A DNA stretch of 64,000 nucleotides, taken from positions 39,828 through 103,827 of IMG/VR virus record IMGVR_UViG_3300042564_006100; one strand, 5' to 3'. The translations under genes were made by a program, and so were the position numbers. Each line of letters begins with the position of its first letter. The stretch's first letter is position 1. The stretch is from a virus. This document shows, one piece after another, positions 16,147-39,154 of the stretch. Below the pieces are notes generated by a model that searched no databases, was not told the origin of the DNA, and saw nothing but the letters and a program-made list of their open reading frames with translations.

Positions 16147-16527
16147 TCAATCGCCCTGCGGCTGATAGGGTCCCTCTCCCACGGTGATGGTGCCATCCGG
16201 ATTCATCGTGAACTCGTGGGTTGGCCGTACGATGTCCGGCAAGACTTCGTCCAGTGCTGCAATGGAGTCGATCACCTCGGTGAGTGCGCCATGCGCCTGT
16301 GCGATACGAACAGCATCGGTGCCGAGAGCGTCCACAGCTTGCTGCGGAGTGAGTCTAGGATGGTGCCAGATTCGGCTAGCGCCCTGCTTTTGGATCTGGC
16401 AGAGCCGTTTGTATCCTTCGCGGGCGTCGGCGAGAACGGCGGCACGAAGCCGCGATGCCTCACGGGCCAAGCTGATTTCCGGCACTTCGGGCGAGGCCGG
16501 GGTGGCGAAGATTTTGGTGTTGCTCAT
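16147..16527 (-). CDS. Hypothetical phage protein
   Basis: 126 aa, ATGA-coupled to upstream gene. Confidence 0.65.
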   Translation of the reverse strand: MSNTKIFATPASPEVPEISLAREASRLRAAVLADAREGYKRLCQIQKQGASRIWHHPRLTPQQAVDALGTDAVRIAQAHGALTEVIDSIAALDEVLPDIVRPTHEFTMNPDGTITVGEGPYQPQGD

Positions 16528-17657
16528 GGTTTTCTATCGGTTCCGGTTTGTTTTAGAATGGCGATCTCACGCGAGACGCCGGGTTGGTTGAATTTGCCGA
16601 TCGAGTCGGCTGCACGGGTGGCGGATCCGCTGAATCCAACCCTTGTCAGTTGGCATCCGGCCCGGTGGAGCAGGTCGCAGGCGAAGGCTCCGGTGGTCAG
16701 GTGGTTGCTGAGCGGCTCTGAAATCCGCCGGATTTCGACGTGCTTACCGCAGATCACGGGGAGTTGATGCCGCAGCCAGTCGCCGGTGCCGTTGTCCCGG
16801 ACAATTACCAGGCGGGCCTTTGCCGCGACTTCCTGCGTCGCCGGGCTGATGCCATGCTGTTGAAGGTGAGGGTTTGCGATCAGGAATAGAACGTCGGCTC
16901 GTCCCCCGTCCCAGCCGTGGCAGTGATTGATCCATGCCACCGGGAACTGTTGAGGGATGGGCAAACCGTCCGGCCGTGCTACGAGTGTGATCGGCCCGCA
17001 AAGGCCGGCGTTGCACAGCGCCGCCACACAGGCAGATGAGTCCGCCTGGCCAAGCGGATTGGTGACCAGCGCGGTTCTGGCCGCACAAAGACACGCCTGC
17101 TCGTATTCCTCTTCGGTGTCGATTTGAAGGCTGTTCAGGTGGCTGTTCGTGACCGGGATGACGTTGGAGAAGTCTCCGACCATTCCCGCAGGAAAGATTG
17201 CCACGCAACCGTCCCACAGGAGTTCCTCTCCGGTGTTCTCGCCACCGATGACGAAACGGTGGACATGCCGCGAGCTGAGGACGGTCGCATCCGGATGCTG
17301 GACCGCTGCTTCAAGACACCGGCGGAGGATGCCGTCGCTCCGGAATGGACTGGTCGGTTGGAGCAGGACGCACTGCCGCCCGGTGGTGCCGGTGGCTTCG
17401 AGCGCATGCCTGATAGAATCAGCGTGCGAGCAGTCTGCGGTGGCCAGGTAATCTGGGCGTTTCACCGCACGCGCACCGTGACGACGGGCGATGTCGAGCA
17501 GTTCCGGAATGTCGGAAGTGACCACCGTTTCGAGTCCCGCTTCGAGAGCGTGAAGGATCGACCACTCCGCGAGCGGACGACCTTCCAGAGGAAGCATATT
17601 CTTGAAGCGGAGCCTCACGCTGCCCGCACGAGCTGTGATGACTGCGACCGGTTTCAT
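16524..17657 (-). CDS. Acylneuraminate cytidylyltransferase (NeuA-like) fused to a sialyltransferase-like domain
   Basis: VITARAGSVRLRFKN, LLQPTSPFR, QIDT; C-terminal LTTG...C....GF; true start 17657 overlaps upstream stop. Confidence 0.8.
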   Translation of the reverse strand: MKPVAVITARAGSVRLRFKNMLPLEGRPLAEWSILHALEAGLETVVTSDIPELLDIARRHGARAVKRPDYLATADCSHADSIRHALEATGTTGRQCVLLQPTSPFRSDGILRRCLEAAVQHPDATVLSSRHVHRFVIGGENTGEELLWDGCVAIFPAGMVGDFSNVIPVTNSHLNSLQIDTEEEYEQACLCAARTALVTNPLGQADSSACVAALCNAGLCGPITLVARPDGLPIPQQFPVAWINHCHGWDGGRADVLFLIANPHLQQHGISPATQEVAAKARLVIVRDNGTGDWLRHQLPVICGKHVEIRRISEPLSNHLTTGAFACDLLHRAGCQLTRVGFSGSATRAADSIGKFNQPGVSREIAILKQTGTDRKP

Positions 17658-18889
17658 ATCATCGGGAGGGTTGCGGTTTTGAGCGTGCCAGCGGCGTTTA
17701 CATAAATTGTCAGGCTCCCGCTGATCGCCGAGTAGGCGAACATCATCATGCCCGGCGGGATGGTGCCTGGGGCGTGATTGAAGACCGCGCCACCATGCAG
17801 GGCCGTCGGGCTGAGTCCGTGGCCGTCGGTGACTGAGAACTGCATGACGTTGGCTCCACCCCACACATGACCACTCAGACGGGGGCCGGTGCTGCCGTAG
17901 GGGGCTACCTCCAGCCGGCCATAGCCGTGCATCGTGTTCGTGTCTCCGGTGACTACCCCGTTGCCAATCGCGATGCAGTTGAGTCCTTCGGTTCGCGCAC
18001 CGAACCCAAGGGCGATGCCGTGGCTGTAGGCCATCGTGTTGTTGCCAATCGCTACCGCTTCCCCATGGCTCACCGATCCGAAACCGACTGAAACTCCGTA
18101 GCCTGTAGCAAGCGCACCAATAAGGGTCGCCGATCCGTGGGCGATGGTGTTATTGCCTACGGCGACCCCATGAGTAGTTACTTGGATGCCATGAATCGCT
18201 TGGAGAGCAGGCAGACGAGTCGCTGGCACAAAACCATGTGCATCCAGTTCGGCATAGCCGTGCGGCATCCCCTTGCGACTGGTCAGTTCGACCAATTGCG
18301 GAAGCTGGCCGACAGGCAGGGTGCCGCTGGAATCCAGCTCGGCATACCCGTACGCCGCACCCTTGCGACTGACCAGTTCGATGGATGTAGCTGCCGGATA
18401 GGCGGGATCGGCGTCGGTGGGCACGCCTTCGGTGCCGCGGTTCACGTCATTCTCGACGACCACAAGAAAGGTGCGCGTGCTGGTCGGTTCACCCGCGCCT
18501 TCGCGCCAGGTGATCTCCCCCATCAAGGTAATTTCGGGAAGCTCCTCTGCCGTGGGTGAGCCGATGTTGAGCGCCGAGTTGAGTTGCAGCGTGTTGAAGC
18601 CGAGAGCGCATTCGTATTTGGGTGTGTCGTCGCCCTCCGATGGCATCGACCAGTCTGCTGTGTGCGCGAGATAGGACCGGTCGAACTGATTGCGCGGCTT
18701 GATACCGATCTGGATTTCCAGAGTGCCCGGATCGCCTATCGTGACAGGTGTAATGCCGTTTAGGAGAAAGGCCACCTGGAGGCGGGCGTAGTCGCCACGT
18801 TTGAAACGGAGGGTGTTGACCGCGCTACGCTGGCCCGGTCCCTGGATAAGTTGGAGCGTTTCAAGATCGACGTGGAGCTTCACGCCCAT
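17654..18889 (-). CDS. Tail fibre/adhesin-like protein with YadA-head-like repeats
   Basis: RKG...GYAELD..G..P...LP twice; GVAVG/AVAIG/IALG/IAIG repeats; start may be GTG 18883. Confidence 0.7.
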   Translation of the reverse strand: MGVKLHVDLETLQLIQGPGQRSAVNTLRFKRGDYARLQVAFLLNGITPVTIGDPGTLEIQIGIKPRNQFDRSYLAHTADWSMPSEGDDTPKYECALGFNTLQLNSALNIGSPTAEELPEITLMGEITWREGAGEPTSTRTFLVVVENDVNRGTEGVPTDADPAYPAATSIELVSRKGAAYGYAELDSSGTLPVGQLPQLVELTSRKGMPHGYAELDAHGFVPATRLPALQAIHGIQVTTHGVAVGNNTIAHGSATLIGALATGYGVSVGFGSVSHGEAVAIGNNTMAYSHGIALGFGARTEGLNCIAIGNGVVTGDTNTMHGYGRLEVAPYGSTGPRLSGHVWGGANVMQFSVTDGHGLSPTALHGGAVFNHAPGTIPPGMMMFAYSAISGSLTIYVNAAGTLKTATLPMI

Positions 18890-18907: not shown

Positions 18908-19465
18908 TCACTTGGCTGGCCATTTGCGCAGCGGGCATGTCTGGGATCTGAAACGTGCCTTGGCATCGACAAAACACCCGCAGCGGGCGCAGGTCCGGTT
19001 CGACCGAAGCTGGTTGCACGATACACAGACGGCAAGCCGTGCGGCCACTTGCTGTGCGGTCAGAGTCGGTTGGCCTTGGACCATGGCCTTGGTTTCCGAA
19101 CCAATCGCCTTGGCCAAGCTGCCAGCCCTCTTGAGCAATCCCGGTGGTGCTGGCTGGTTGGCGTTGGCATGCGCCGATTTCCGCGATTTCACTCCACTCC
19201 GCCAAGATGATGCGCGTGCAGCGATCATGTCGCCGCCATGGGTTGCTAGAGTCGCTTCCACAACCGACAAAGCAGCGTTGAGTTCCTTGATGAAGGCATG
19301 TCCCGCCTGCGACATCATGCCGTTGGGCAGAAACATTCCTTCGCGTTGCACAGCGTGGAATGCCCGATGTGATTTCACCGGCATTGCCGATTTCAGCAAA
19401 ACGCGAAATTGCGGGTCTTCCTGAAACGACTGGAGGCACGAGGGGATGAGGTCTTTCTTGTCCAT
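18908..19465 (-). CDS. Protein with C-terminal Cys cluster (DUF6171-like)
   Basis: RLAVCVSC...CARCGCFVDAKA....CPLRKW; start MDKKD overlaps upstream TAA. Confidence 0.7.
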   Translation of the reverse strand: MDKKDLIPSCLQSFQEDPQFRVLLKSAMPVKSHRAFHAVQREGMFLPNGMMSQAGHAFIKELNAALSVVEATLATHGGDMIAARASSWRSGVKSRKSAHANANQPAPPGLLKRAGSLAKAIGSETKAMVQGQPTLTAQQVAARLAVCVSCNQLRSNRTCARCGCFVDAKARFRSQTCPLRKWPAK

Positions 19466-21366
19466 TATCCGAAGCAGCTTGGGTAGTAGGTTCCATTTTC
19501 CGCCGTGAACGATCTGCGGAACGACGGGCTGCAATCCCCGGCGGTTTCGCAATAGCCGTCGCAGCAGCCGTTGCCGACATTGTTGCAGTTGTCCCCTTCG
19601 TCGGAGTCATTCGGGATGCAGTTTCCCGCCGAGGCGCAGGTGATACAGGAGCCATCGTCGTCGCTGATCTCCGGATTGTAATTGGCCGCGTAAGGGTTCG
19701 TGCATCCCGATCCGCACATTTTCGGGAACTTGAACTCGTGCTGATCGTTGGACTGCAACTTCTTGATTGGGAGGTAGGCGTTGGCGCGAATCAGGACGGA
19801 TTTTCCCAAATCCTGCTGCACCGGCACCGAGTAGTCGATGGACTGCCCTGGAGTCATGTTGGGATTGTCGATCTTCTTGCCGTGGACATAGACCGACACC
19901 CAATAGGTGCCGTTTGCCTCCGGTGAAGGAGCCGCACCAAGAGTCACCCGGAATCCAAGCTGGATCTGGAACGGCGGTGCCGTGCCGTCAAGGAAGCACG
20001 GTGGATGCCACGTCACGTTCTCAATGGTGATCTGTGCTGGTTGAAGTGGCGGCGGAGGGGGCGGCGGCGGAGGGGGCGGCGGCGGAGGGGGCGGCGGCGG
20101 AGGGGGCGGCGGCGGTGGCGGCGGTGGCGGGATGAATACGCAGGCGTAAGTTGGGCATCCCCTGGCATCCATGCCTGTGACAACCCGCACGGTCCCGGCA
20201 GGACAGTCCGGTAGCGGAGGGCATCCGACCGGAACGCAAGCATAGATCGGGCACCCGTCTGCATCGACTCCGGTTTGCACGCGCACCATGTTTGGTCCGC
20301 AGATGATAGGCTCACCACAAGGGTTTCCGATAGGCTCGCACGGACCCCATATCACGCAGCCGTTTTCATCAACTCCTTTGCCTATGGAGACTTCACCCGG
20401 AGGACATGCGGGAGGATCACCGCAGGCGACGGGCACGCAAGCATAGGTAGGACACCCCTTCGCATCTTGCCCGGTAATGACGAGTCTGCTGCCCACACCG
20501 CACATCGGCGGGTTAGGACAAGGTGGCTGGCAATTCCACAACGCACAGCCGACATCATCGAAGCCGATGGCAACCGCGATCTGTCCGTCTGGACATACGG
20601 GCGGGTCGTCGCAAAACACGGGCTGGCAAGCGTAGGTAGGACAGTCTCGCTCATCCCTGCCCGTTTCTATCACCTTCGAGTCGGGTCCACAATTCGGCGG
20701 ATCGCCACATGGTTGACGGTCATCCGGGGCACAATACCAGATCGCACAGCCGAGGTCATTGAAGCCGCTGACTCGCGCAGTGAATCCTTCCATGCACGCG
20801 GGCGGGTCGTCGCAAAACACAGGTTGGCAGAGATAGATTCGGCAGCCGCAGGTATCGAAGCCTCCGGTCACGAGCTTGAAGTTTGGTCCGCAATTTGGCG
20901 GAACTTCGCATGGGGTGGCGCAATCGTCAGGATCGACAGGCGGGTAAATCGGCGGAACGACCGGGCACTCGGCGGGTGGCGGGTTTCCTCCGGTTGGTGG
21001 GATAAACGGACTTGTGATAGGTGGCGAATCGACGGGCGTCGGGTATTGCGCCTTTCCCTGCTGATCCCATCCGTCATAGACGGTGCCGCACTGTGGCGAA
21101 TAAACCGTCCAGTCGTAGGCAAGAAACTCTTCAACGCCGAAGTCGGCGTTCCGAACCACTCGGCTCACCGCAGCTCCGGTGGTGGTCGAAGACTTGGTCA
21201 GGTAGGTGAGATGAAACAGTCCGTGATGATAGACGATCCACCGTTGCGAGGTCGCATGGTTGAACGGATCGGTGACGGGGTCAGCCCATCCGTTCCGGCG
21301 CACCGCCCAACCTCTGCGTGCGTATTCAGCCGCCAGCGGCCAAATCATGCCATGTCCCACGCTCAT
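19465..21366 (-). CDS. DUF2829/Tad2-like N-terminus, eight Cys-rich repeats, poly-Pro linker, C-terminal domain
   Basis: 633 aa ORF; repeats C-x5-C...G.D..GC....C; GCTNPYAANYNP...DDGSC near C-terminus. Confidence 0.8.
   Translation of the reverse strand: MSVGHGMIWPLAAEYARRGWAVRRNGWADPVTDPFNHATSQRWIVYHHGLFHLTYLTKSSTTTGAAVSRVVRNADFGVEEFLAYDWTVYSPQCGTVYDGWDQQGKAQYPTPVDSPPITSPFIPPTGGNPPPAECPVVPPIYPPVDPDDCATPCEVPPNCGPNFKLVTGGFDTCGCRIYLCQPVFCDDPPACMEGFTARVSGFNDLGCAIWYCAPDDRQPCGDPPNCGPDSKVIETGRDERDCPTYACQPVFCDDPPVCPDGQIAVAIGFDDVGCALWNCQPPCPNPPMCGVGSRLVITGQDAKGCPTYACVPVACGDPPACPPGEVSIGKGVDENGCVIWGPCEPIGNPCGEPIICGPNMVRVQTGVDADGCPIYACVPVGCPPLPDCPAGTVRVVTGMDARGCPTYACVFIPPPPPPPPPPPPPPPPPPPPPPPPPPPPLQPAQITIENVTWHPPCFLDGTAPPFQIQLGFRVTLGAAPSPEANGTYWVSVYVHGKKIDNPNMTPGQSIDYSVPVQQDLGKSVLIRANAYLPIKKLQSNDQHEFKFPKMCGSGCTNPYAANYNPEISDDDGSCITCASAGNCIPNDSDEGDNCNNVGNGCCDGYCETAGDCSPSFRRSFTAENGTYYPSCFG
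20047..20130. repeat. In-frame tandem repeat encoding 28 prolines
   Basis: (GGCGGCGGAGGGGGC)x4 at 20048-20107 followed by GGC/GGT runs. Confidence 0.95.
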
Positions 21367-21815
21367 TGTGTGCTTGTGGGTTGGAACGTCCTGCGGATGT
21401 CCTCATACAAAGGGACAATCGGGCAGGTTCCATAAACGGCGTTCGGATACATCGGATCAATCGCGGGGGCTGTGTCAGCAGGGCGCGGGTAGGGCTTCTT
21501 GCCCTGCCAACGGTCGCCGCCATAGCCATAGCCGCCCTGCATCTCCAGGCACGCAGGAGTAAGCACGGTCCAGTCTTCGGCATAGAAGTCCTCGACGACG
21601 AAGTCCGTGTTGCGAATGACTCGAGTCGCCTTGTTGCCGGTGACGACTTGTCGGTAGAGCAGCCAGAACAACGCGTTTTGATAGACGACCCACCGCAGGG
21701 CACGTCCGGTGTCGCCGAACAATTCGAGCTCATCCCATCCGGCACGACGCACCGCCCACCCGCGACGGGCGTATTCGGCGGCCAGAGGCCAGATCATGCC
21801 GGTGCCGTAGGTCAT
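21363..21815 (-). CDS. DUF2829/Tad2-like protein, paralog of the next gene's N-terminus
   Basis: MIWPLAAEYARRGWAVRR.GW and RN.DF.VE.F.A.DWTV shared by both; start 21815 by ATGA overlap. Confidence 0.7.
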   Translation of the reverse strand: MTYGTGMIWPLAAEYARRGWAVRRAGWDELELFGDTGRALRWVVYQNALFWLLYRQVVTGNKATRVIRNTDFVVEDFYAEDWTVLTPACLEMQGGYGYGGDRWQGKKPYPRPADTAPAIDPMYPNAVYGTCPIVPLYEDIRRTFQPTSTQ

Positions 21816-27563: not shown

Positions 27564-29252
27564 TTACGCAAAAACCGCCTCCGCCGGTGCCGGGGGGGTG
27601 CCCCTGTTCTTGGTGTTGTCGTGGATCTTTTTGAGCCAGTCGGTCTGCCGCTTGTTTTCCTCTAGCAGCCCTGCGTTTGCGCTGCGGCCGAAGAGCATGT
27701 TCATGGATTGTGCAAAAGAGCCTAACTGTCCTGACCCGCCCGCGATGACTGCCGGAGCCGTTGGCTTTTCGTCCGCTGCCGCCATTCCGATTTGCTTGCC
27801 CGTCTTCACCGGAGGAATGGCCGCTTTGATGCGCTCCACGGTGTCGCCGAACTCGCGCTTCATGCCGGACGTGTCGATGGCCTCCGCGGTATTGGCGAAA
27901 GTCTCGCTGAATCGGGTCTTCACGTTCTCACCGGCTTCTACCAGACGTTGGGCGATTTTCTGTGCGGCAGGTTCCAACAGGTCACCGGCCTTCGAGAACC
28001 GCGCCGCCGCGTCTTCATCGAGGATCGCCGCGCTCTCGCGGATCGTCTTCTGGATGCCGTTGAACGCATCCTCTTTGCCAAACAACTCAGCCAGCGGACG
28101 CGCCACCTCAATGATTTCCGAGAATCCCTTCTGCAAGAAGCTGATGGCTGATAGAAAAATACCGATGATGGCATTGCCCATCCCGCTCCAGAACTCGGGA
28201 GTCGTGAGGATTTGGAAATAGGTCACCGCCGTCTTGAAATACTCGACGATGTATTGCCCGGTGGCGGCGATGGTCGCCCGCAGGGTGGCCCACAGGAAAT
28301 TCACGCTCTGTGCGAAGGCCAGCTTGAGCGACGACCAGACAAGATTGAGAGCCTCGCCACTGCGGAAGATCGCGACCAGGAATTGGCCGGCTTCGGCAAG
28401 CTTGGGCTTGGCCATTTCGACGAATTCAAGGAACTGCGGCGTGATGGATGCGAGTGCTGCCGCCAGTGGTTTGCCCACTTCCTCAAAACCCTGATTCAAC
28501 GCGGCCTTGATCTGGACGGACGCATCCGCGGTCGCCGCCGCCGTGCCGCCGACCTGCTTTTCGATGGCGGCGAGCACCAACGCCTGCGCCTCGTGCATCC
28601 GGTTGGATTCGGCCAGAGTCTTGATCTTCGCCTTCTCATCTTCGGTGAAGGTAATGCCCGAACGCCGCAAGGCCGCGAGGCCATTGACCGGATCGTTCAG
28701 AGCCTTGCCAAGCTGGACGGCGTTCTGTTCGGCAGCGCCGAAACCGGCCGCCGCCATGTCCACGGCCGCTTGGGTGGCCCGATCAAAATTACCGCCCAGC
28801 TCGTCGGCGGTGTTGGCGAGTTCCTTGAACGTGAGCAGTTTCGCCTGGGTGAGTTGGATCGCATTGCCATCCACTCCGGTTTGCAGCTCGATCTTGTCCG
28901 CGAGGTTGTTGAGCCGTTCGGCCACCGCGTCGGACTGGTCGCCAAACAGACCCATCGATTTGGCGATGTTGCGAACGCGGGCGTCGGCGGAGTTCGCCGC
29001 CTCACCAGATAGGATCAGTTTGTAGGTCAACGCGCCAATCGCCGCGCCTGCGGCTGCCACAGCGGCGGCGACAACTGCCGTTCCCTTAGCCACGGATTTC
29101 ATGGCGCTGCCCATCGACGCGAAACCCTTGGATGCGCCCGACGACATGCCGGCCATCGAGTTTTTCAAGCCGCTGGTTTCCGACTTGGCAGTCTTCAACG
29201 CGGACTGGAATCCAGCCGTGTTGAGTGTCAGCAGTGCGGTGAGCTTGGCCAT
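27564..29252 (-). CDS. Tape measure protein
   Basis: Ala-rich helical, QLGKALNDP..GL.AL.R.GITF motif. Confidence 0.85.
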   Translation of the reverse strand: MAKLTALLTLNTAGFQSALKTAKSETSGLKNSMAGMSSGASKGFASMGSAMKSVAKGTAVVAAAVAAAGAAIGALTYKLILSGEAANSADARVRNIAKSMGLFGDQSDAVAERLNNLADKIELQTGVDGNAIQLTQAKLLTFKELANTADELGGNFDRATQAAVDMAAAGFGAAEQNAVQLGKALNDPVNGLAALRRSGITFTEDEKAKIKTLAESNRMHEAQALVLAAIEKQVGGTAAATADASVQIKAALNQGFEEVGKPLAAALASITPQFLEFVEMAKPKLAEAGQFLVAIFRSGEALNLVWSSLKLAFAQSVNFLWATLRATIAATGQYIVEYFKTAVTYFQILTTPEFWSGMGNAIIGIFLSAISFLQKGFSEIIEVARPLAELFGKEDAFNGIQKTIRESAAILDEDAAARFSKAGDLLEPAAQKIAQRLVEAGENVKTRFSETFANTAEAIDTSGMKREFGDTVERIKAAIPPVKTGKQIGMAAADEKPTAPAVIAGGSGQLGSFAQSMNMLFGRSANAGLLEENKRQTDWLKKIHDNTKNRGTPPAPAEAVFA

Positions 29253-36959: not shown

Positions 36960-37337
36960 TTACTTGGAGGTGCGGGGTTCCACGACGATTTCGACGCGAC
37001 CGTCCGGATGAACCCGGATGCGACCGTCCTTGTTGATGAATTCACCAGTGACCGCAGGGGGCGTGGCGCACGAGGCGAGGAACGGAACGGTCAGCACCGC
37101 CATGGCGAAGCAGAACAGGCCGACCTTGAACGATTTGTTGGGCTTGCCGTCGTCGAAGAGGTCGCCAAGAACGACAACCAGTTCCTTCAATGCCAGCGCG
37201 GCGGGACCAGCGATGAGTAGGTATTGCGCCTTGTCCGCGTCGAGCAGGTTGGCGATGCCCGAGAGGTCAATCGCGGCCATTGTGGTGAGACCGGAACCAA
37301 GGAAGGTGAGGAAGCGGAGGATAGTGACGGTTTTCAT
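36960..37337 (-). CDS. Membrane lysis protein (holin-like) with internal lipobox
   Basis: Three hydrophobic segments; third ends FLASC. Confidence 0.55.
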   Translation of the reverse strand: MKTVTILRFLTFLGSGLTTMAAIDLSGIANLLDADKAQYLLIAGPAALALKELVVVLGDLFDDGKPNKSFKVGLFCFAMAVLTVPFLASCATPPAVTGEFINKDGRIRVHPDGRVEIVVEPRTSK

Positions 37338-39154
37338 AACTCCCCGTCCGGGGTGTCAACCGGGGCAGCCGCGATGGACTCCCGTCCGACGATCTTGAGC
37401 ATGGTCGCGGCAGCGGCCTGTTCCGCTTCGCAGTCGAAGTAGTGGTTCGGTCGCGAGCCGATTTGCTTCCACATCCATTGGCCCTTTTCCTTGATGCGTT
37501 GCTCGCTTTCCATCTGTGCGAGGAAGTCGTCGTCGATGTCATCGGGCACTTCCCATGTTGGTCCCTGAGCAGGATCCTGATTGCGACGCAGACGGGCGAG
37601 AGTGTCCTTGATGTTGAGGTTGCTCCAATAGTGAACGTGGCAGTGTTGGCGATGCGACAACACCACCTTGCGCCGGGGCGAATAGAACCGCTGGACGGTT
37701 TTGCCATCGCGCCCCTTGTGGGCATAGACCGGACGGCGGTCGCCGATGAGCGCCACCCATCCTCGCTTGGCGCATTCGCGATAGACGTCGTAGGTCGCAT
37801 AGCCGGCGTCGAGGAAGACAAGACTCGGATGAACTTCGAAACGTTCCTGCAACACGTCGATGTCGGTGAAGGTCAGGATGCGCTCGTTCCACATCAGACG
37901 GCTCGATCCGTCCGCCGACCACGAGCGGACAACGACAAACAAGTGGTCCATCTGGCAGTCCACGGTGATGAATCGAAGCGGAATCAGGCCGGTGCGCTCG
38001 GGTAGCGGGGCGGCGAGAATTTTTCCGGTCTTCGGATCAATCGCGCCTTCCTCTTCCCACGTCTCGCCGCGCTTGTAGCCGGACTTGACGATTTCGAGTT
38101 TGTAATCCTCGACGTACTCGCGCCACGGCAGGCCAAGGCGCTTCTGATAGAACTGTTGCAGCAAGGAAACGTCACCCTTCCGCGCCGCCGCCTTCGCCCG
38201 CAGGTAGAGTTCGGCCAACTGCCCCCAGCTCATCGCGCACAGGGCGTTCCAGTGGAATCCGACGTTTTCTTTCGAGGCTTTCGGATTCTTGGCGACGAAA
38301 GCACCGGTGGAGTTGAGTTCTCGGCGGGTGCGCTCGCCATCGTTGAAGTAGTGGTTGCAAGATTCGCAGCGCATGGCGGCAGTGCGCCTAACTTCATCAA
38401 AATCCCAGTCGCCGGATTCATCGCGGGCAGACTTGCACCACTCGACGCACTCCCACTTGAACGGCTGACGGTGATGGCACTCGGGACAGGCGAACGTCCA
38501 TTCACGCTGGTCGGTCATCTCGAACTTGCGGTGGGTGTCGTCGTCTTCCTCGCCGCCCTGACTCATGAAGATGCACTTGCCCAGCCAGCCGAAGGCGGTG
38601 ACGCGGGCCTCGGCCTCCGCCATGTGCCCCTGTGGCCAGCGCCAGGTTTCATCACCGATCAACCAGCGGATCGAACGGCGCTGGAGGTTGGTCTTGTTGT
38701 GCGCCCCGAGAATCCAGAGCGTCATGCCGTTGGTAAACTGGATCGCGTTATTCTTGCGCTTGTGGCGGTGAACGCCGGTGGGCATGAGCCGTGCGACCGG
38801 CTCGCACTGGTCGAAGAGCTTCTGCAGGCGCGACTCGGAATAATCGCGGGCATCCTCGTCAGTTTGGTCGAGCCAAAGTGCGGGTCCCGGCAGGTTGGAA
38901 ATGATGTAGCAGAGCGTCAGCTCGGGAGCGGTGGTCTTCGATGACTGCACCGACGCAATGATCGAGACCAGGCGAATGCGCGGATCGACCAATGATTCCA
39001 TGACCTCGCGAATCCATGGCGAGTTCTCCGACCGGAAGCGTCCGGGATTGGGCGAATAGGGAATGGCCTCGATGTGATCCTCACACCATTGCCAAGCGGG
39101 GCGACGGTCAGGCGGTTGCCACGCCTCGCGCCAGATTTCCTTGAGGACACTCAT
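37334..39154 (-). CDS. Terminase large subunit, GpA family
   Basis: PPDR....W, SVQSSKT, RSIRWLIGDE, CPEC/CESC, ITVDCQ, NHYFDC. Confidence 0.92.
   Translation of the reverse strand: MSVLKEIWREAWQPPDRRPAWQWCEDHIEAIPYSPNPGRFRSENSPWIREVMESLVDPRIRLVSIIASVQSSKTTAPELTLCYIISNLPGPALWLDQTDEDARDYSESRLQKLFDQCEPVARLMPTGVHRHKRKNNAIQFTNGMTLWILGAHNKTNLQRRSIRWLIGDETWRWPQGHMAEAEARVTAFGWLGKCIFMSQGGEEDDDTHRKFEMTDQREWTFACPECHHRQPFKWECVEWCKSARDESGDWDFDEVRRTAAMRCESCNHYFNDGERTRRELNSTGAFVAKNPKASKENVGFHWNALCAMSWGQLAELYLRAKAAARKGDVSLLQQFYQKRLGLPWREYVEDYKLEIVKSGYKRGETWEEEGAIDPKTGKILAAPLPERTGLIPLRFITVDCQMDHLFVVVRSWSADGSSRLMWNERILTFTDIDVLQERFEVHPSLVFLDAGYATYDVYRECAKRGWVALIGDRRPVYAHKGRDGKTVQRFYSPRRKVVLSHRQHCHVHYWSNLNIKDTLARLRRNQDPAQGPTWEVPDDIDDDFLAQMESEQRIKEKGQWMWKQIGSRPNHYFDCEAEQAAAATMLKIVGRESIAAAPVDTPDGEL

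Follow-up and report, generated by a model that had tools for sequence, protein, structure and literature searches.

A remote Tad2 relative as the probable conserved foot of a modular tail adhesin in temperate siphophages of Verrucomicrobiota

The window analyzed here is the right-hand 64 kb (64,000 nucleotides) of a 103.8-kb virus record from IMG/VR, IMGVR_UViG_3300042564_006100. Two adjacent genes on the minus strand of the window, P0001 (21363–21815) and P0002 (19465–21366), share an N-terminal domain, which we will call the N-domain. An earlier reading of the DNA alone (the sequence-only reading) had noticed this pair, and it is present exactly as described there. We found that the N-domain is a genuine but remote and divergent relative of DUF2829/Tad2. 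Tad2/DUF2829 is now read as a marker of sponges that counter the defense systems Thoeris and CBASS (cyclic oligonucleotide-based antiphage signaling system). We think it probable, if well short of certain, that in this phage the Tad2-fold domain serves for docking or pairing, as the conserved foot of a tail adhesin built from modules, and that P0001 is a probable adaptor. Our observations cover the homology and the fold, the lost ligand signature of Tad2, the arrangement of the domains, the place of the genes in the operon and the mosaicism among relatives.

A divergent relative of Tad2

BLASTP aligned P0001 and P0002 over their first ~125 residues with 63/128 identities (49%, E = 3e-34), and the first ~90 residues are 56% identical. 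The string quoted in the sequence-only reading, MIWPLAAEYARRGWAVRR.GW ... RN.DF.VE.F.A.DWTV, occurs in both proteins. The two motifs to which that reading drew attention, G..V.R..W (G19-V22-R24-W27) and D..A.DW (D76-A79-D81-W82), are also present.

The Pfam model for DUF2829 (PF11195) has a gathering threshold of 25 bits; P0001 scored 9.7 bits (E = 1.6) and P0002 had no match. So a plain label of DUF2829, as the sequence-only reading gave it, overstates the membership of these proteins. Weak matches to PF11195 were seen in 11 of 32 close homologs of P0001 (best E = 0.08), and a match with E < 0.01 was seen in 1 of 63 distant family members. In the ESM Atlas, the top three language-model neighbors of residues 1–90 are PF11195 clusters.

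To compare families rather than single sequences, we collected relatives of the N-domain by exhaustive profile search (114 representatives at E ≤ 1e-3) and built a reference set of 121 Tad2 sequences, namely SPO1 Tad2, taken from its genome, and 120 homologs. hhalign matched an alignment of 99 N-domains to the 121 Tad2 sequences with a probability of 94.8% (E = 5.4e-8), and a second, in-house run of hhalign gave 92.2%. As controls, we used a reversed Tad2 alignment and 20 column-shuffled ones, and these gave probabilities of at most 0.9%. With a lower alignment threshold, residues 3–86 aligned to residues 1–89 of Tad2, with both signature motifs paired. Tad2 was not found by single-sequence and profile hidden Markov model (HMM) searches of the PDB sequences, and the family profile A4 matched Gly-rich linkers only.

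The predicted fold agrees with the profile comparison. An AlphaFold2 (AF2) model of the N-domain, built without templates from an alignment that contained no Tad2 sequences, has a predicted local distance difference test score (pLDDT) of 88.9 and a predicted template modeling score (pTM) of 0.78. The top 21 Foldseek matches of this model in PDB are all Tad2/AcrIIA7 chains, with template modeling (TM) scores of up to 0.66; their E-values, from 7e-3 to 0.17, all exceed 1e-3. We also sought a structural match to DUF2829 as an attempt to refute the Tad2 fold proposed by the sequence-only reading, and found one. Against ten Tad2/AcrIIA7 entries from PDB, VIA-align gave Z = 8.3–9.6, with root-mean-square deviations of 1.5–2.3 Å over 63–68 residues, while the best fold other than Tad2 reached Z = 2.9. 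The Tad2/DUF2829 entries that the N-domain resembles are SPO1 Tad2 (8SME, 8SMF, 8SMG and 8WJE), HgmTad2, which is AcrIIA7 (8KBI–8KBK), SptTad2 (8WJD) and ModTad2 (8V3E and 9EIB). The top matches in BFVD are Tad2-like viral proteins. Like Tad2, the N-domain has an N-terminal helix, a five-stranded antiparallel sheet and a short helix before the last strand, besides the two shared motifs. In the model of P0001 these elements are a helix at residues 9–17, strands at 22–24, 41–46, 49–55 and 62–66, a helix at 74–77, and a last strand at DWT. (An AF2 model of full-length P0001 from a narrow alignment was poor, with pLDDT = 52.5 and no Foldseek matches, and is superseded by the N-domain model.)

The N-domain has lost most of what Tad2 uses to bind its ligands. 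In SPO1 Tad2, the site for glycocyclic ADP-ribose (gcADPR) comprises W25, N26, W73, S76, T78 and D79 (10.1101/2023.05.01.538930), and the equivalent residues of HgmTad2, W21/N22 and S90/T92/D93, were mutated to disable gcADPR binding (10.1101/2023.11.15.567273). Across our 121 Tad2 sequences, W25, N26, T65, W73, S76, T78 and D79 are invariant. The tail family keeps W27, which corresponds to W25 of Tad2, in 98/99 sequences, and position 76, which corresponds to D79, is D or E in 99/99. By contrast, position 28, which corresponds to N26, is asparagine in only 5/99, and the W-x-P-S-x-T-D of Tad2 aligns provisionally to R65-V-V-x-x-x-D71-F72-x-x-x-[ED], with a five-residue insertion. Thus, N26, W73, S76 and T78 are not kept. 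Whatever the exact residue equivalences, the W/S/T signature is absent. The N-domain family instead has its own invariant residues, unlike Tad2: R23, W42, R65, D71, F72, T83, P87 and C89.

In the subgroup of HgmTad2 and SptTad2 only, an insertion of 35–41 residues between β2 and β5 binds cyclic dinucleotides (10.1101/2023.11.15.567273). This insertion is absent from the model of the P0001 N-domain, which has a tight β2–β3 hairpin there (strands 41–46 and 49–55). Most likely, the N-domain no longer works as a sponge for nucleotide signals.

Architecture, operon position and duplication history

In P0002, the N-domain is followed by a linker, eight Cys repeats, a proline spacer, a β-rich domain and a Cys-rich tip (Table 1). 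The whole protein has 48 cysteines, 34 of them in residues 141–415. The Cys repeats have no match in Pfam even at E = 10, and the C-terminal 186 residues have no match in the ESM Atlas. Among 13 relatives of P0002, the identity of the N-domain is 59–81%, the number of Cys repeats differs, and the tip is 78–94% identical in 8 but undetectable or replaced in the other 5. So P0002 has a conserved N-terminus and a mosaic, exchangeable C-terminus, as in anchored tail fibers and receptor-binding proteins (RBPs). On the plus strand, the proline run corresponds to a GGN repeat (Tandem Repeats Finder (TRF) score 145); in its place, relatives have Gly-rich or mixed Pro/Gly spacers of varied lengths.

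P0001 consists of the N-domain and a Pro-rich arm. Its 32 homologs have 133–163 amino acids and the same MxYGxGMIWP start. The motif columns of the arm are nearly invariant in the alignments of these homologs, and the arm motifs recur in the linker of P0002. The full-length AF2 model predicts the arm to be disordered or extended (pLDDT 36–41). Two cysteines just past the domain are kept in both paralogs (C89 and C131 of P0001, C93 and C134 of P0002), and most members of the wider family have them too (C89 in 73/99). A disulfide between these cysteines may hold the arm in place. By inspection, we saw no hydrophobic stretch resembling a signal peptide at the N-terminus of either protein. A tblastn search with P0001 against 50,697 GenBank phages gave no match.

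Across the family, the domain is single and N-terminal in 109 of 115 carriers, with a median of 219 amino acids after it, and it is stand-alone (30 or fewer further residues) in only 2 of the 115, some of which are metagenomic fragments. Tad2, in contrast, is a stand-alone protein of ~90 amino acids (about 70–110), whereas the N-domain is the N-terminal module of tail-operon proteins of 150–740 amino acids. The C-terminal parts in the family include He_PIG, EGF-like, TIL, CBM_14, Flg_new, SprB and BiPBP_C domains. A search of PHROGs with the 63 distant members gave single weak matches only.

The short copy is followed directly by the long copy in all 10 of 10 related viral contigs, and the short-long pair also occurs in about ten contigs from metagenome-assembled genomes (MAGs) of Verrucomicrobiota (Luteolibacter, Akkermansiaceae and others). 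In the window and in the related loci L004–L016 and L030, the genes occupy a slot in the tail operon distal to the tape measure. In four divergent subfamilies (the window; L014/L015; L016; L030), the N-domain gene comes after a gene for a protein of ~800 amino acids and a gene of ~250–300 codons, and in L014/L015, L016 and L030, its codons overlap or abut the preceding gene. That preceding gene encodes a He_PIG protein, according to Pfam, in the window, L014 and L015, and has no Pfam match in L016; in L030, its 274-amino-acid product resembles the He_PIG protein by eye only. The 783-amino-acid tail protein of the window has counterparts of 796–865 amino acids at the same position in L014–L016 and L030, with a similar size and N-terminus. 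Searches for related loci with the proteins P0080 and P0071 found nothing, and a metagenome scan gave one 1.5-kb contig only.

In the window itself, the late region is lambda-like and lies on the minus strand (Table 1). The stop of the He_PIG gene overlaps the start of P0001 (ATGA), the stop of P0001 overlaps the start of P0002 (ATGA), and the stop of P0002 overlaps the start of the DUF6171 gene (TAATG). These overlaps tie P0001 and P0002 to the flanking tail genes by translational coupling. After the cytidylyltransferase gene, which ends the late operon, come excisionase and integrase genes on the opposite strand.

Table 1. Features of the late region and of the proteins P0001 and P0002 (coordinates in the window).
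Feature	Coordinates	Strand	Evidence or remark
Large terminase	37334–39154	-	Late region, which also has portal, S49 protease/scaffold and P22-type coat protein genes
Tape measure	27564–29252	-	Tail module; four unnamed tail genes follow
Tail protein of 783 aa with immunoglobulin (Ig)-like segment	22561–24912	-	PHROG matches to the Ig-like segment
He_PIG Ig-domain protein, 248 aa	21812–22558	-	Pfam He_PIG, E = 3e-8; directly upstream of P0001
P0001, 150 aa	21363–21815	-	Open reading frame and translation
N-domain of P0001, residues 1–88	21552–21815	-	AF2 model, Foldseek, VIA-align, hhalign
C-terminal arm of P0001, residues 89–150, Pro-rich	21363–21551	-	Conserved C89, QQGK.YP, DP..PN, G.C131P.VP
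P0002, 633 aa	19465–21366	-	Open reading frame and translation
N-domain of P0002, residues 1–92	21091–21366	-	Family HMM match by hmmsearch, E = 2e-32; 56% identical to the P0001 N-domain
Linker of P0002, residues 93–140	20947–21090	-	C93 ... QQGK.YP ... C134P.VPP, as in the P0001 arm
Eight Cys repeats of P0002 (~32 aa each), C-x5-C-x15-C-x4-C	20131–20946	-	Cys positions and regular-expression matches
Poly-proline spacer of P0002, ~28 residues	20047–20130	-	Translation; TRF array at 20048–20130
Conserved β-rich domain of P0002, residues 448–545 (ITIENVTW...ANAYLPI)	19732–20025	-	Identity 80–88% in close relatives, 36–56% in distant ones
Cys-rich C-terminal tip of P0002, residues 546–633, and stop codon	19465–19731	-	11 Cys; exchangeable among relatives
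DUF6171 protein, 185 aa	18908–19465	-	Pfam DUF6171, E = 6e-7; phrog_13558, E = 3e-15
Tail-fiber-like protein, 411 aa	17654–18889	-	PHROG minor tail and tail fiber families, E = 5e-7 to 4e-3
Cytidylyltransferase-domain protein	16524–17660	-	Last gene of the late operon; N-terminal CTP_transf_3 / NTP_transf_3, Pfam E = 1.6e-9

In a tree of the domain, the short-gene copies form one clade (support 96/98) with short branches, while the long-gene copies fall outside this clade and have longer branches. This separate placement implies that the duplication predates this phage group and that both copies have been maintained. At the base of the short clade are the single-gene relatives P0041, L027 and L028, which have a short-type foot, a poly-Pro stretch and a β-rich C-terminus; their position suggests that P0001 arose by truncation. 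(We left out P0042, an apparent two-domain protein that seems to be a gene-calling error in which the short and long genes are read as one.)

The domain has been paired more than once. L016 (9398–11499) has an independent duplication: the domain stands at the C-terminus of a 306-amino-acid upstream protein and at the N-terminus of the 393-amino-acid protein that follows. In the tree, these two copies are sisters (100/93). P0089, a metagenomic protein of 524 amino acids, is the sole tandem case among the 115, with domains at residues 216–300 and 307–383. In P0089, a region with PPGL...G.P..PG.W motifs precedes the two domains and a β-rich part follows them. Tad2 itself is built of interlocked dimers and forms a homotetramer (10.1101/2023.05.01.538930; 10.1101/2023.11.15.567273). 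Given the interlocked dimers of Tad2 and the recurrent domain pairs, the paired copies would most simply be read as mutual binding partners.

Some observations concern the neighboring genes and the hosts. The DUF6171 protein, whose gene precedes that of the tail-fiber-like protein, has a C-terminal cluster of cysteines, and it is possible that it is an assembly factor. In the cytidylyltransferase-domain protein, the ~250 residues after that domain have no family match; this gene may contribute to sugar chemistry of the virion or of the host surface. One contig from an Akkermansiaceae MAG (C12 of G001; 178 kb) carries two related prophage copies of the pair (L020 and L023), at ~14 kb and ~171 kb; in one of these copies, TGA stops occur and the long gene is truncated. 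A canonical PF11195 gene was not found in the whole phage record, nor was one found in 81 sampled genomes of the host family, and ThsB_TIR (PF08937) was present in 15 of these 81. Neither result decides function. The ThsB_TIR domains are mostly within open frames of ~650–1400 amino acids rather than in short ThsB-like genes.

Proposed role and alternatives

We propose that a group of temperate siphophages of Verrucomicrobiota recruited an offshoot of DUF2829/Tad2 to the tail tip, where it would serve as a protein-protein module. The domain and its conserved Pro/Cys arm would form an invariant foot that fixes the protein to the tail tip. The foot probably attaches to, or beside, the upstream He_PIG protein, which is our candidate for the socket or partner of P0001 and P0002, and it would oligomerize in the way that Tad2 protomers interlock. 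The rest of P0002 would project outward as an adhesin or receptor-binding arm, with its disulfide-type Cys repeats, poly-Pro, β-rich domain and swappable tip. P0001 would be an old truncated paralog with the foot only, which probably pairs with the foot of P0002 as an adaptor or as a partner that sets the stoichiometry. The presence of these proteins in the virion, the docking partner and the hetero-pairing are what we infer.

Several points weigh against this proposal. Neither P0001 nor P0002 matches a tail-fiber or RBP family of PHROG or Pfam. Docking to the He_PIG protein is proposed from conserved gene order. Between the N-terminal part of the fusion protein of L016 and the He_PIG protein of the window, no homology was detected (blastp E = 3.8; no Pfam match), so the "Rosetta stone" argument, from an Ig protein fused to the N-domain, is an argument from position. 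The Tad2 reference alignment covers only relatives of SPO1 Tad2, and the mapping around β4/α3 comes from a low-confidence stretch of the hhalign alignment, so the exact equivalences there are provisional. Finally, the invariant surface-type residues R23, R24, W27, W42, R65 and D71 could form a pocket of other specificity.

The sequence-only reading had offered two alternatives, a signal sponge or reuse of the Tad2 fold as a docking module. Our data fit the second: the domain is N-terminal in nearly all carriers, the operon slot is fixed and the tips are exchangeable. The first is not supported. P0001 and P0002 would then be working Tad2-type sponges for gcADPR, His-ADPR or cyclic dinucleotides, made late or carried by the virion, which blunt Thoeris or CBASS, and we consider this very unlikely. 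It is true that the fold and the remote homology are those of Tad2, that W27 and the acidic residue 76 are retained, that ThsB_TIR occurs in the host family, and that a canonical PF11195 gene, which could otherwise fill the role, is absent from the phage record. However, the ligand residues and the dinucleotide-binding insertion are missing, stand-alone forms are rare, the slot within the tail operon is fixed, and in P0002 the domain is fused to Cys-rich repeats of an extracellular type. We also considered that the pocket might have been retuned, so that the tail-tip Tad2 fold still binds a nucleotide-derived or anionic ligand through remodeled residues (R23/R24/W27/W42/R65/D71). The protein could then act on the virion as a lectin or sensor and aid adsorption directly, with an anionic surface molecule, such as a phosphorylated or acidic glycan, or another small molecule as its target. 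These invariant residues are in or near the regions of the Tad2 pocket, and the cytidylyltransferase gene at the end of the operon suggests acidic-sugar chemistry. But RBPs normally conserve the virion-proximal end and vary the host-binding end, and here it is the N-domain that is conserved and the tip that is swapped. Furthermore, the short paralog has no other functional part and no search indicates a ligand, so we view a retuned pocket as unlikely. If true, the virion would have a multivalent sponge or sensor for signals where its DNA enters the cell, or else a lectin, and the origin of anti-defense sponges would be linked directly to tail proteins.

Two other alternatives concern the genes rather than the pocket. 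The pair might be morons, that is, accessory or lysogenic-conversion genes at the end of the tail operon nearest the integrase, with products that are not in the virion, for instance a cell-surface or exclusion protein. Three observations would suit this reading: the pair sits close to where the late operon ends, with ~4 kb between it and the integrase; no other gene separates the N-domain gene from the integrase in L016; and neither protein matches a named tail-fiber family. This seems quite improbable given the stop/start overlaps with flanking tail genes, the tail-fiber-like gene that follows the pair, the retention of the slot in four divergent subfamilies and the lack, by inspection, of a signal-peptide-like N-terminus. 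The remaining alternative is that P0001 is an assembly chaperone for P0002, which transiently occupies or templates the N-domain and is absent from the finished particle. A small gene beside a fiber-like gene, with the same interaction domain and in a strongly conserved, short-branched clade, would suit a chaperone. However, the single-copy subfamilies L014, L015 and L030 do without the short gene. Also, known tail-fiber chaperones are usually encoded downstream of the fiber gene, work on the C-terminal part of the fiber, and are not paralogs of its N-terminus. So a chaperone role, too, seems quite unlikely to us.

Implications and comparison with known adaptor systems

The docking proposal bears on annotation. 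Pfam misses a family with at least 115 cluster representatives, in which the Tad2 fold forms part of tail proteins and does not have the ligand signature, and annotation by fold would wrongly label these tail genes as anti-defense. The family also provides a specific example in which to ask whether a small oligomeric phage fold moved from a structural role to counter-defense or the other way. For the poorly known temperate phages of freshwater Verrucomicrobiota (Luteolibacter/Akkermansiaceae), it identifies a probable modular adhesin, and the combination of a conserved foot with swappable tips might be of use in predicting host range.

The literature that we searched contains no description of this architecture, in agreement with the sequence-only reading. 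The nearest likeness is to receptor-binding systems that are branched or dual and use a short, anchor-only protein as the adaptor: the gp37-type proteins of K1-5 and SP6, with the N-terminal domain of T7 gp17; gp66 and gp63.1 of G7C; and TSP1-4 of CBA120. Unlike those systems, the anchor fold here is Tad2-like, rather than T7 gp17-N or T4 gp10-like, and the phage is a temperate siphophage of Verrucomicrobiota, known here from sequence and models. As in those systems, a conserved N-terminal attachment domain is combined with exchangeable distal parts, and a short, anchor-only paralog is encoded beside the long one.

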